From a phage, in the sequence record NC_104726.1: DNA of 64,000 nt; one strand, 5' to 3'. Position numbers and translations under genes: made by a program. Below are positions 30,614 to 34,118 of this stretch, one piece after another (position 1 is the first letter of the stretch; every line of letters begins with the position of its first letter). Below the pieces are notes generated by a model. It saw only the letters and a list, made by a program, of their open reading frames with translations, was not told the DNA's origin and did not search any database.

Positions 30614-30829
30614 ATGAAGATAGAAATATTTGGTGGAGCTGACAACACTCGTGGCCTGATTTACCTTGAATTCGATGAATCATACCTGCCAGAGGTGTTA
30701 AATATAGGCTCTGTTGCTGAGGCTTTGGGAGTAAACCCTAAAGAACTCCACTCTTGTGCTGAGATCGATGGTTGGGAAGAGACCATGAACATTGATTTCA
30801 GTGAAGTAGAGGATGAACCGCTTGACTGA
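30614..30829 (+). CDS. small acidic protein
   Basis: GAGGAG RBS; last + strand gene before the non-coding region. Confidence 0.4.
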   Translation: MKIEIFGGADNTRGLIYLEFDESYLPEVLNIGSVAEALGVNPKELHSCAEIDGWEETMNIDFSEVEDEPLD

Positions 30830-31670
30830 CACACAATTAGCTGCCCGGCTAAAGTGCTGGAAGCACCTATAACACATCTTTCAACTAAATTTCCTACCAC
30901 CACAATCACTTACCTCCCACACATGACTGTTTGCTTGTTTAGTGAGCAGTCATGCCTTGACATTCTTGCCTATCCTGATAAAATTAAGTTCTTCTCTTTT
31001 CTTTTACCGAGTAATTCGGGTTTTCTGTTCTCTTCGGTTTGAAGGGGTATGGAGATACACCTGAGTGAACAGGGTGAACAACCGAACATTTGGCTATGGC
31101 ATTAGCATGGCGAAGCGGACGGGTGACGAAAGAGGGGCCGGAGGACACCAGTCACTGCCATATGATATATGGGTGATAACCTGAAGAGTCTGAATAAGTG
31201 TTTAAGTACCAGTCAGAGGAAAAGGTGAATGGTAGCCGAAGGGGGAGGGGGGTTTCTTGTATCTTTAATTTGTATATTATGTATACACTCGTAAACCAAT
31301 CTCATCTGAATCTGTTTACCACACAAAGTAGATAGGGACAAATATCACCTATTAAACTTGAATTATTTATAGAAAATACCACAACACCACTTAAGTCTTT
31401 GATTTTACACACAAATCCTACAGATATTCAACCTCTATATTTAACATATTCATAACATATTCCATACTCTACCTGTCTGATCAATTTACCCAACCACATC
31501 CTCCATATTTTCCCTGTCTGTACTACCCCTGCCCCGCCGGGAGTCCCGTCATATCTGGCTTTCCAGCAAATATCACACCCACAAATATCATTACCTGAAG
31601 AGGGTTTCATCCCATAATACCTGCCTTACCTGAAGAGCGCTTCATATACCCCGTAAATTTTTTAATTGAC

Positions 31671-31700
31671 CCCCTCCCCGCCGCCGGAGGGGTCGGCTTT
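31671..31700 (+). terminator. GC-rich hairpin, terminator-like
   Basis: CCCCTCC-CCGCCGCC-GGAGGGG followed by TCGGCTTTT. Confidence 0.3.
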
Positions 31701-32289
31701 TCCCACACAGGCCTGAAGAGTCAGCCAGAAATATCTGAACAGGTCCAGTTATACCACGATTTTGACCTGACCGACAGGAGTGCTGCCAGGCGGACGAAAT
31801 GGGAATCATTCTCATTCTTATAACAATTCTCAAATATCGAGGCAGTGAGGCAAATTAATAGGTGAGGCCGTTCACACAATGGCACAACATTTGCAACCTA
31901 TCTTGTGGGAGTGAATGAGAATACCTATCATTGTGAGAATAGTTATCATTACGGGCAATTTAACATAATACCCATTATGCGCACCACTGGCGATCCATAC
32001 AGGGATTGATAACATGAGTTACCGTTTACGCACATAACAATTATATTTCTTACTATTTGTGTGGGATATAGTTAGCAGCCAATAGATTAGATATTAACCT
32101 GCGGACTTCTGACCGTCCAGACGTCTAAACGCCCACACAACAAGGGTTATACATACACAACTGAATGTAAACAGGGCCGCAAAAATGCTACCATACCAGT
32201 TTGTAAATTTTCATGCAGCACTTGACAAAGAGGAGAAAAACTTGTCTGACACCTTATACACTTTCGACACAATAACGACTGTTATTATT

Positions 32290-32640
32290 TCATGTTTCAC
32301 TGTTCACGTATAGATTGTTCCCGCATAGACTGTTTACGCCTGGATAGTTTACACCTTAACTGTTTACACAGATAGGATAAGCCATGACATTCGTTTGCAT
32401 GAAAACAATTAGCAAGTTAACAATTAACAAGTTAATAATATATGACATAATATAAAAGCAGGGCAACTATTAGCAGATCTATAGTTGCCTTGCTTGTTAT
32501 GTCATGATTAACTGAATACAAGGCAACTATGATCTGATTAATAGATTGCAGACAAACTATCACGGGGGTGATGGTTACTGCTTTTATATTATGTCGCGAC
32601 TCCGTCGCGCCATGCCATTCGTTTGCATAGTTGCCTTATT
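32290..32640. repeat. iteron and nested-palindrome cluster in the non-coding region
   Basis: TGTTTAC-like iterons every 14-16 bp (32294-32368); GGCAACTAT/ATAGTTGCC inverted pairs; 18 bp inverted repeat 32444-32461 vs 32579-32596; direct repeat CCATTCGTTTGCAT at 32388 and 32614. Confidence 0.5.
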
Positions 32641-33242
32641 GTTACGAATAAAACAATTGCATTGTTAATGATTTCTTATCTTTCTCTTAGTCATCTAATG
32701 ATTACAGTCAGTATAGTTATGTACAGTAAACATTAGACGACTAAAGATTTCTCTGTTTATTATAACTTACCATTACAATTTCGGACTGTTTACCAAGAAT
32801 GTTGACACATAAGCTGATTTATGTTATGCAGTTTACACGAATAATTATTTTATGCAGGTATTGACTATTCCGTTATTCTATGGTTGGAATAAATACTTAG
32901 CAGACTATAGAATGGTGAGCGTACGTAAATTCTGAGATCTGGCGGCTATAGTTATACTCGATTTTTCACGTAGAACACGCTTTTGTGGTTGTGTAAGTGT
33001 ATGACTTATAAAGATTTTTAGTTGTTGACAAGACACTGAAGATATGCATCAGGTTAAATTTTGTGCAATAGCTGCATTACGTGCACTTTTGGGAGAGAAA
33101 ACGGGTAAAAATGGGCCTGCTACCACACAATGAAAGATTATGCAATAGTTATTTTCCATGTATATTTGTACAGTATGTGGAATTGATGGCTAGTCAATTA
33201 TTCCACTTGCCAGGTAGGGCCGTTTATGGTAGGAGAAGAGCA

Positions 33243-33270
33243 GACAAAAAGAAAGGGGCCTTTAAGCCCC
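33243..33270 (-). terminator. rho-independent terminator for the leftward gene array
   Basis: On the minus strand GGGGC...GCCCC hairpin followed by TTTCTTTTTGT, just downstream of the stop at 33291. Confidence 0.5.
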
Positions 33271-33290
33271 TTGATAATTCAGTTAAGAAA

Positions 33291-33710
33291 TTATAATGAT
33301 TCGTATATTTCAAAAATCCGATTTGCCAGGTCGTTACGGTAGCGGAATTTTTCCTCACGTTTGATCATCAGATCTTTAAAGCCATATTCTTTAAGCACTT
33401 CATTAACTTTATGGCGGCATACCTTCATATTATCTTGAGCGTCACCAATAAACTTGTTGCTGTGGTGCATTGCTTTAATTTCTTCTTCCAGGACCAGGGC
33501 AACCACCCGGACCGGATCAAGCTGGTAGGCGGTAACATCGATGCGGCATTGTAGACGGCTTTTAACGTCTGCCACCGGATATACTGCAACCTCTTCCCCG
33601 TCAACATTGACAATAACTAGTTTACCATCGATTTCGAATCCTTTCGCCGCCGGACCGTGACAAAAAGCGTTATCAAAGCTATATGCCGGATTATTAGATT
33701 TAATGTTCAT
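33291..33710 (-). CDS. hypothetical protein
   Basis: Track ORF; last gene of the minus-strand array. Confidence 0.4.
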   Translation of the reverse strand: MNIKSNNPAYSFDNAFCHGPAAKGFEIDGKLVIVNVDGEEVAVYPVADVKSRLQCRIDVTAYQLDPVRVVALVLEEEIKAMHHSNKFIGDAQDNMKVCRHKVNEVLKEYGFKDLMIKREEKFRYRNDLANRIFEIYESL

Positions 33711-33854: not shown

Positions 33855-34118
33855 TTATTTGTTGCTCATCCAGTTTTCCCAGGCTGCCTGATAATCTGCC
33901 TCACTGCGGCGGATCTCTTCTTGCTCTTCAAGTCGGATCTCTTCTTCCAGGTACCCCAGTATATCGGCTTTTTTGGTCTGGCGTAACATCCAATCATCTT
34001 TTTTACGGGTAAAGATCTTATATGCTTTCTCGCAAACCTCTTTTTTGCTACCTTTTTGGACTTCAAGAACTTTGTAGGCCATGTACTGAACTAGTTTGAG
34101 CTGATCAAGACGTTTCAT
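33855..34118 (-). CDS. hypothetical charged protein
   Basis: Track ORF, co-oriented. Confidence 0.4.
   Translation of the reverse strand: MKRLDQLKLVQYMAYKVLEVQKGSKKEVCEKAYKIFTRKKDDWMLRQTKKADILGYLEEEIRLEEQEEIRRSEADYQAAWENWMSNK

Follow-up and report, generated by a model that had tools for sequence, protein, structure and literature searches.

The question raised by this locus is what a dense cluster of direct and inverted repeats does in phage DNA that appears to encode nothing. The cluster lies at positions 32,290 to 32,640 of a 64,000-nucleotide stretch of sequence record NC_104726.1 (the whole stretch is referred to as the window), in a gap on which two sets of genes converge. Its location, directly after a segment homologous to the terminal repeat of related phages, is assigned with high confidence from sequence alignments. 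With respect to function, the element may well act in cis near the end of a non-permuted genome that carries short direct repeats at its termini, and a role in packaging or end processing is proposed with moderate confidence.

The window comes from an rV5-like E. coli myovirus (Vequintavirus). The 2.5 kb around the element match 121 phage records at 90–99% identity, and the matching records are essentially all rV5-like myoviruses. The gap is as follows.

30830–33290, no strand: non-coding gap between the convergent arms; the last plus-strand gene ends at 30829 and the first minus-strand gene lies at 33291–33710.

An earlier note, made from the letters of the window alone, stated that no credible open reading frame (ORF) spans about 30,830–33,290. 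This statement holds: no ORF wholly inside the gap exceeds 71 amino acids (aa), and an 82-aa minus-strand ORF (30661–30909) overlaps gene 163 and the edge of the gap. In the annotations of related phages the gap is either left empty or filled with inconsistent mini-ORFs. The genome paper on rV5, the type phage of this group, shows the homologous stretch in grey, labels it 'non-coding', and offers no explanation for it; it separates genes 163 and 164 there. Bidirectional terminators were expected there and none were found, and the skew analysis of those authors tracked transcription only.

Terminal repeat and genome ends

The evidence for the location of the element comes from GenBank records of relatives with defined ends, which delimit the following segment.

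31789–32246, plus strand: homologue of the 458-bp direct terminal repeat (DTR); it begins GGCGGACG and finishes GAGGAGAAAAACTTGTC.

In the record of phage Gotham, a repeat_region is annotated at 1–459 and again at 136567–137025, and its aligned ends are window positions 31789 and 32246. Position 413 of the HdK5 and Gotham records aligns to window 32201, which places the first base of both at 31789. The same offset of 412–413 to window 32201 is found in YN3, bov10K2/bov22_2, and ECP2309, and a sensitive search shows that many records begin 412 bp upstream of window 32201 and carry the region twice. At the other boundary, EdH4, HdK5, and ECP2303 finish exactly at window 32246. The records that start at 31789 or end at 32246 come from several laboratories. 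'Terminal redundancies of 458 bp' have been described by Korf (2019), a length equal to that of window 31789–32246. In the sister genus Mydovirus, phage KPP-1 has a 514-bp direct terminal repeat, defined by doubled coverage and a PhageTerm 'T7-type' call. The ends of the KPP-1 repeat are homologous in motif (left GACGGAC, right CTTGACAAGGAGAGAGAATTGTGT), and the record of phage KP12 starts at the same base as the KPP-1 repeat.

Since window 31789–32246 corresponds base for base to the 458-bp repeat of the relatives, the region should represent a genome–genome junction in concatemers. The element starts about 45 bp past the right boundary of the DTR, and about 0.5 kb inside the left physical end. 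The terminal repeat was missed by the earlier note and is not visible from the sequence alone. Among its suggested functions, which included a replication origin, a packaging or injection-related site, and a regulator array, packaging or another terminus-related role is the one favored by this position, and an origin receives generic support only. Many Vequintavirus records are opened at arbitrary points, not at the terminal repeat.

Repeat modules to the right of the terminal repeat

Everything that the earlier note had reported in this stretch is present, with positions off by 1–2 bp in places. Seven features follow the right boundary of the DTR.

32247–32280, plus strand: GACAY boxes at about 10-bp spacing (TGACAC at 32247, TACAC at 32257, GACACAATAAC at 32266).
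32293–32375, plus strand: iteron array of five 15-bp units and one partial unit, each AYTRTTYACRY followed by 4–5 unconstrained nt.
32381–32400, plus strand: box B copy 1, GCCATGACATTCGTTTGCAT, conserved in the vequintaviruses examined except V18 (KY683736).
32402–32440, plus strand: AT-rich 15-bp repeats, AACAATTARCAAGTT × 2.4, variable in relatives, with or without a 45-bp insertion.
32444–32595, no strand: 152-bp imperfect palindrome centered at about 32507, with an 18-bp perfect outer stem (32444–32461 and 32578–32595).
32592–32612, plus strand: island TGTCGCGACTCCGTCGCGCCA (TGTCGC..TCGCGCC), adjoining the right arm of the palindrome; the most widely conserved sequence of the region.
32609–32628, plus strand: box B copy 2, overlapping the fourth ATAGTTGCC copy (32627–32635); an endpoint of the deletion in phage FV3 (JQ031132).

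Across seven vequintaviruses, the 2.46-kb gap is 84–100% identical per 40-nt bin and mostly above 90%. The sole hypervariable patch is 32247–32440, where identity to the window is only 37–78%. The drop, from 96% to 37%, begins within about 5 bp of the repeat boundary, and identity returns to 95–100% at the palindrome. In the comparison with related genomes that the earlier note had recommended, the palindrome is conserved, and the iteron array is hypervariable and absent in other genera.

The GACAY boxes are present in 3–9 copies in all 15 vequintaviruses compared, V18 and FV3 included, and in each of the 15 the first box stands at +1 after the repeat end, right at the terminase cut. The GACAY motif also forms the outer part of the palindrome arms, and GACACAATAAC at 32266 is nearly identical to the palindrome arms of Av-05 and KPP-1.

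The TGTTTAC-like iterons, reported in the earlier note as recurring every 14–16 bp, are borne out. The units start at 32301 (TGTTCAC), 32316 (TGTTCCC), 32331 (TGTTTAC), 32346 (AGTTTAC), and 32361 (TGTTTAC), with the partial unit at 32293, and the first TGTTTAC-type unit is at +55 from the repeat end. Tandem Repeats Finder reports a period of 15 across 32299–32369, and at least three TGTTTAC-like sites chained at 14–16 bp occur in only one of 300 whole-window shuffles. A logo built from 33 distinct units consists of an 11-nt conserved core and a spacer of 4–5 nt that carries 0.04–0.34 bits, and it is informative at positions outside the fixed search pattern (-3, +6, +7, and +12). Relatives keep the cores of the repeats and differ in the spacers, and the segment is the least conserved bin of the gap (37–51% identity).

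The copy number of the iterons ranges from none in V18, through 1–2 in C7 and 2 in LL12 and FFH2, to 4–6 in most (5 in the window), and reaches about 8–10 in Murica and an IMG/VR contig (IMG2). The period of 15–16 bp is kept in 13 relatives despite this range. With such a period, successive iterons lie on opposite faces of the helix. In its behavior the array is an accessory module that can expand, not an essential site. To the left of the DTR no array of TGTTTAC cores is found, only single GTTTAC sites at 31296 (minus strand) and 31314. The TTTACA/TGTTTAC cores were also considered as the -35 elements of tandem promoters; no acceptable -10 stands at 16–18 bp from them in the window or in Gotham, and the regulator array suggested by the earlier note is unsupported for this reason.

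Box B was noticed in the earlier note as a direct repeat at 32388 and 32614. The repeat is real, and CATTCGTTTGCAT is exact at 32388 and 32616; the second position had been given 2 bp too low, and the first copy reads ACATTCG, not CCATTCG. The match extends to a 20-nt repeat, GCCATG(A/C)CATTCGTTTGCAT, which occupies the whole of 32381–32400 and 32609–32628. In the anatomy of the 15 vequintaviruses box B is recognized as GCCATGNCATTCGTTTGCAT, 3' of the iterons, and its equivalents in other genera are CCATACTCTGGCAAT (three copies in phage A73) and CCACGATNACGCGAACGA (two copies in KPP-1 and PVP-SE1). In A73 the third CCATACTCTGGCAAT box lies 3' of the palindrome.

Palindrome and its conservation across genera

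What had been described as nested palindromes folds as one long imperfect palindrome of 152 bp. Inside the outer stem, 32463–32492 pairs with 32519–32549, and an asymmetric side hairpin occupies 32555–32576. The 18-bp inverted repeat of the earlier note is 100% complementary and its left arm was placed correctly; the right arm was off by 1. The GGCAACTAT/ATAGTTGCC copies, also found earlier, lie at 32462–70, 32481–89, 32522–30, and 32627–35, and are four of the five copies in the whole 64 kb. By our own estimate, about 5 × 10-5 perfect inverted repeats of 18 bp are expected within 2.5 kb. The fold z-score of 32436–32640 (205 nt) is about -9.6 as DNA, and -9.9 and -9.1 as RNA on the two strands, so that both strands fold equally well. 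Within the genus the palindrome is 95–100% identical. The 18-bp arms are not read as the ends of an invertible segment (inverton), since the sequence between them is itself close to a palindrome. Two of the five GATC sites of the gap stand at mirror positions in the palindrome (32476 and 32531); the 2461-bp gap contains five such sites in all, against about 12.8 expected from the window-wide density.

Since blastn with the window does not reach other genera, the equivalent gaps were located by means of a neighboring 87-aa protein and queries from KPP-1 and A73. A perfect long-range inverted repeat of 16–21 bp is found at the same place in five genera, represented by Vequintavirus, A73, Mydovirus KPP-1, Seunavirus PVP-SE1, and Avunavirus Av-05 (A73 belongs to unclassified Vequintavirinae and is counted as one of the five). 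The arms are 73–188 nt apart, and the right arm ends in TGTC followed by GC...TCGCGCC. The stem lies 198–310 bp from the repeat end in the window, KPP-1, and A73. GACAY(A/T)ATAA is common to all the arms, and beyond it they diverge with every change compensated: all 88 cells of the comparison are Watson–Crick pairs, both partners have changed in 9 of the 18 pairs and a single partner in none, and no G-U pair occurs. The perfect score is partly a matter of construction, as the arms were chosen as perfect inverted repeats. Slid controls give 29–54% pairing. The interiors of the palindromes differ by genus, and all are multi-hairpin, with z between -7 and -13. Extra direct copies of GACAYWATW are found near the stem in PVP-SE1 and Av-05, as in the array after the repeat in the window.

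Islands of blastn similarity connect A73, KPP-1, Av-05, PVP-SE1, SSE121, and Cronobacter phages. As a control, the bare island pattern was collected from 120 IMG/VR loci; these are mostly chance matches, and an inverted repeat adjoins the pattern in only one of the 120, a Mydovirus-like contig.

Perfect Watson–Crick pairing, the symmetry of the two strands, and the recurrence of the motif favor an element that acts at the level of DNA over one that acts as RNA. The palindrome could be a hairpin or cruciform, a pair of inverted binding sites, or both. The general claim of the earlier note, that the locus is a protein-binding cis element, gains support from the 11-nt core that is retained among random spacers in 33 units and from the stem that covaries in five genera.

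Packaging or end processing and the alternative readings

Short terminal repeats need to be duplicated during concatemer processing. Under the packaging and end-processing reading, the direct-repeat boxes would be multivalent putative sites for a phage DNA-end or packaging protein, of which the small terminase subunit is the obvious candidate. Such a protein would assemble beside the terminase cleavage site, as at lambda cosB or the T7 SRL. The palindrome would act as DNA, by way of a hairpin or cruciform or of paired inverted binding sites, in junction processing, and possibly in duplication of the terminal repeat or in end protection. A more specific version, that the palindrome and island form a snap-back or cruciform device that is nicked to duplicate or resolve the single repeat at each junction, with the GACAYWATAA boxes positioning the cut through a bound protein, is rather unlikely. 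If true, it would give the myoviruses an equivalent of the hairpin intermediate of T7, which is itself poorly understood.

Several observations weigh against a packaging or end-processing role. Two come from natural variants. FV3 lacks the whole palindrome: a clean deletion of 228 bp (window 32401–32628), whose endpoints are the two box B copies, takes the AT-rich stretch, the palindrome, and the island. It is the sole palindrome-less vequintavirus record among 17 inspected directly and the low-coverage search matches, which were checked individually. In V18 neither the TGTTTAC array nor the upstream box B is present, and the GACAY boxes, the palindrome, and the downstream box B are kept. Provided that both records are correct, the iterons cannot be an indispensable packaging signal, nor can the palindrome. 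Long palindromes are prone to deletion in cloning or polymerase chain reaction. The FV3 deletion is possibly a natural recombination product, or else a cloning or assembly artefact, and the V18 deletion is also possibly an artefact. Every vequintavirus genome seen has GACAY boxes and at least one box B. In the 100 nt after the repeat end of V18, only 12 consecutive A and a short GGTGAC..GTCACC hairpin separate the GACAY boxes from the palindrome.

Further points concern the comparisons. No TGTTTAC array follows the repeats of A73 and KPP-1. A73 has other arrays instead, with CCACAGAG in six copies to the left of the repeat and YCTYTTTGTGG in three copies to the right. The binding of a protein to the boxes is itself a prediction from sequence, and the manner in which the stem arms were selected must be kept in mind when their pairing is cited. 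Even in T7 the short-repeat arrays have only a putative function. The ends are placed in the window by homology to records whose own ends were for the most part deduced from coverage or with PhageTerm. In one recent paper on a vequintavirus the PhageTerm call is 'headful, partially permuted', and circular permutation was assumed in the rV5 paper.

A replication origin would accommodate several features of the locus, with an initiator on the TGTTTAC iterons, melting of the AT-rich 32402–32460, and a palindrome that aids helicase loading or priming. The five direct repeats (32301–32375), the stretch of about 80% AT at 32402–32460, and the hairpins have the classic layout; this phage group has no mapped origin; and a conserved promoter at 30957–30984 (see below) could prime initiation in the manner of T7, whose replisome that of the window phage resembles. 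However, consensus sites for DnaA and IHF (and Chi) are absent from 32247–32640, the only DnaA and IHF matches in the gap being at 31403 and 31392, and no initiator-like gene is recognized by Pfam among nine flanking ORFs, which is weak evidence for proteins so small. The iterons vary from none to about 8–10 among phages more than 90% identical and are absent in other genera, and their period puts neighboring sites on opposite faces of the helix. The cumulative GC skew, proposed in the earlier note as a check, has its maximum at about 30 kb and mirrors the convergent gene arms only, as the rV5 authors found; it tracks the direction of transcription and is uninformative as to an origin. An origin is therefore considered unlikely. 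The transcriptional alternative, which is judged improbable, holds that face-to-face intrinsic terminators stop both arms before the terminal repeat: a hairpin at 32456–32495 when the minus strand is read, and another at 32555–32576 when the plus strand is read, with the T-rich 18-nt arm coming next in both cases. In a variant of it, an RNA of about 125 nt might start from a TTAACA-16-TGaCATAAT promoter. A terminator-like site is indeed present on the plus strand at 32555–32576, as is a promoter-like site at 32424–32451 (10/12, with TG); the Murica record annotates a minus-strand terminator within the palindrome; the rV5 authors expected bidirectional terminators here, although they found none; and a GC hairpin with a T-run stands about 85 bp before the left end of the repeat. 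Yet in KPP-1, PVP-SE1, and Av-05 the arms are not T-rich and the long stem is conserved nevertheless, and the promoter-like site is not conserved in Gotham (-35) or in other genera. The lack of G-U pairs and the equal folding of the two strands would be unusual for an RNA under selection, and the iterons would be left unexplained. Rfam gathering thresholds give no match in the 64 kb, and an E-value threshold applied to the gap gives only weak microRNA-like matches to the palindrome; scans for transfer RNA and transfer-messenger RNA yield nothing useful.

It may also be asked whether the arrays have any sequence-specific function, or are neutral by-products of slippage and of recombination stimulated by the ends. 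The confinement of hypervariability to a single patch that starts about 5 bp from the repeat boundary, and a copy number that falls to zero in V18, are what such a process would leave. The 33 distinct units, however, retain an 11-nt core with random spacers, and recent slippage would copy whole units; in addition, the period is strictly 15–16 bp, and the palindrome is 95–100% conserved and covaries across genera. The neutral explanation is accordingly regarded as quite improbable. Least probable of all, by a wide distance, is an injection stop of the T5 type, in which the repeats and palindromes would pause genome entry. Dense direct and inverted repeats in non-coding DNA near a genome end recall T5 as we know it, but the element lies outside the repeat, 0.5–0.85 kb from the end, with no ORF between 31789 and the element, and the flanking genes are transcribed towards the end. 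As there is no gene between the element and the terminus, a pause there would expose nothing to express.

Sequences within and to the left of the terminal repeat

Of the whole DTR, blastn recovers from A73 and KPP-1 no more than an island of about 30 bp, CATTTAACATAATACCCATTATGCGCAC (31948–31985), which is shared by three genera. The island contains a small palindrome, CATAAT-N4-ATTATG, and could serve as the core recognition site of the repeat. To the left of the DTR, CCTGAAGAG occurs four times on the plus strand (31180, 31594, 31629, and 31712), out of eight forward copies and one reverse copy in the whole window. At the equivalent place, A73 carries GGCCTGAAGAGG and the array of six CCACAGAG boxes. 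The CCTGAAGAG motifs may be the left-flank counterpart of the right-flank arrays. On the minus strand of A73 (6412–6260), two copies of a sequence of about 50 bp, CCCCGCCATACTCTGGCAATAAAAGCAAGAAAAAATTTATTTTGGGAAAGAAGA, stand 100 bp from each other, just ahead of the presumed right end of the repeat.

The GC hairpin to the left of the DTR reads CCCCTCC-N8-GGAGGGG followed by TCGGCTTTT (31669–31705), and has a look-alike earlier, at 31525–31545. Similar terminator-like hairpins stand ahead of the repeat in A73 and KPP-1. The terminator-like hairpins and the palindrome would bracket the repeat against incoming transcription.

Farther left, 30830–31270 is 96–100% identical per 40-nt bin in the seven vequintaviruses, and is the most uniformly conserved part of the gap. 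It includes a near-consensus sigma-70 promoter, TTGACA-16-TGnTAAAAT (11/12), at 30957–30984, which is 100% conserved and points to the terminal repeat about 800 bp away. Its position recalls T7 phiOR. The 280 nt downstream of it are purine-rich and end in GGGGGAGGGGGG; the RNA fold of 30990–31270 is unremarkable (z = -1.5).

Neighboring genes and database records

The plus-strand arm encodes class I and class III ribonucleotide reductases and ThyX, all of nucleotide metabolism, and then many small ORFs. In the minus-strand arm, small ORFs come first; beyond them, 21–30 kb from the element, lie the genes of a T7-like replisome, which comprises a polymerase of family A, a helicase resembling DnaB/gp4, and a PIF1 helicase. 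No terminase genes are found within the 64-kb window. The 87-aa ORF (33855–34118, minus strand), labelled 'DNA translocase FtsK' in several GenBank records, is conserved as far as A73-like phages (about 69% identity) and has 42% matches in 50-kb Salmonella siphoviruses. The FtsK label suggested a KOPS-like GGGGAGGG target in the gap, an idea that was dropped, as this ORF has no Pfam match at E ≤ 0.01; nor does any of the other flanking small ORFs among the nine scanned. A neighboring 139-aa protein has only three related loci in IMG/VR.

About 18 records named 'Campylobacter phage' (UNVERIFIED and unannotated) are vequintaviruses that are 76–93% identical to the window region and are classed in Vequintavirus. 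Their 'Campylobacter' host label is probably wrong.

Significance of the flanking modules

The terminal repeat itself was already known, from several GenBank entries and one sentence of a paper, as were the repeat-flanking arrays of T7-like phages. In literature searches, no description was found of the flanking modules, the iteron logo and copy variation, or the covarying palindrome and island in the Vequintavirinae. The placement of the repeat provides the correct point at which to open and annotate about 120 related genomes. The candidate packaging or end-processing signals comprise three kinds of direct repeat (GACAY boxes, 15-bp iterons, and box B) as well as the palindrome, whose stem covaries, and the adjoining island. 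Vequintaviruses are common in E. coli phage cocktails, and packaging signals and a hypervariable locus would be useful for engineering and strain typing.

Comparison with known systems

In iteron-type origins, such as lambda ori and plasmid oriV, direct repeats are likewise followed by an AT-rich stretch. The locus differs from them in that DnaA boxes are lacking, the period is out of helical phase, and the copies range from none to about 8–10. The injection stop signal of T5 is likewise a cluster of direct and inverted repeats that lies close to the left end and encodes nothing; the T5 element, however, is inside a 10-kb repeat and comes after the pre-early genes, whereas the element here is outside the 458-bp repeat and has no genes ahead of it.

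The resemblance to lambda cosB is closer in position. There, the small-terminase sites R3-R2-R1, each about 16 bp, lie next to cosN, with an IHF site between. In both cases a direct-repeat array starts tens of bp from the cut, on the DNA of the future left end. In contrast, lambda has 12-nt cohesive ends, not a 458-bp direct repeat, and three sites with an IHF site, where no IHF consensus is present here. The lambda sites bind the small terminase, whereas those of the window are putative, and the array is dispensable in V18.

For T7, the sequence was checked directly. The 160-bp repeat (1–160) is followed by about 12 CCTAAAG cores with a 13-bp period at 174–340, and similar repeats also stand ahead of the right terminal repeat. 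In T7-like Yersinia (fPS) phages, whose genomes are 90–97% identical, 11–34 such repeats have been reported between the left repeat and the first promoter. A DNA hairpin intermediate has been proposed to help duplicate the T7 repeat before packaging (Chung & Hinkle 1990, as summarised in PMC4281155); the pairing, covarying stem near the repeat end is the corresponding feature here, although it is predicted from sequence and is missing in FV3. The window phage belongs to a myovirus subfamily unrelated to T7, and its core sequence is different. In T7 the core occurs on both sides of the repeat as well as inside it, whereas here the left flank has only the dispersed CCTGAAGAG; and the region here has in addition the GACAY boxes, at a 10-bp period, and a long conserved palindrome. 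In layout the two agree: a core of 7 nt is repeated regularly, every 13 bp in T7 and every 15–16 bp here, in non-coding DNA on the left-end side, the array starts about 15–55 bp from the repeat boundary, and in T7-like phages and vequintaviruses alike the copy number of the array varies strongly between close relatives. The vequintaviruses therefore appear as a second, independent lineage besides T7 in which a terminal repeat is followed by a short-repeat array, and they could help to resolve how short repeats are recognized and duplicated.

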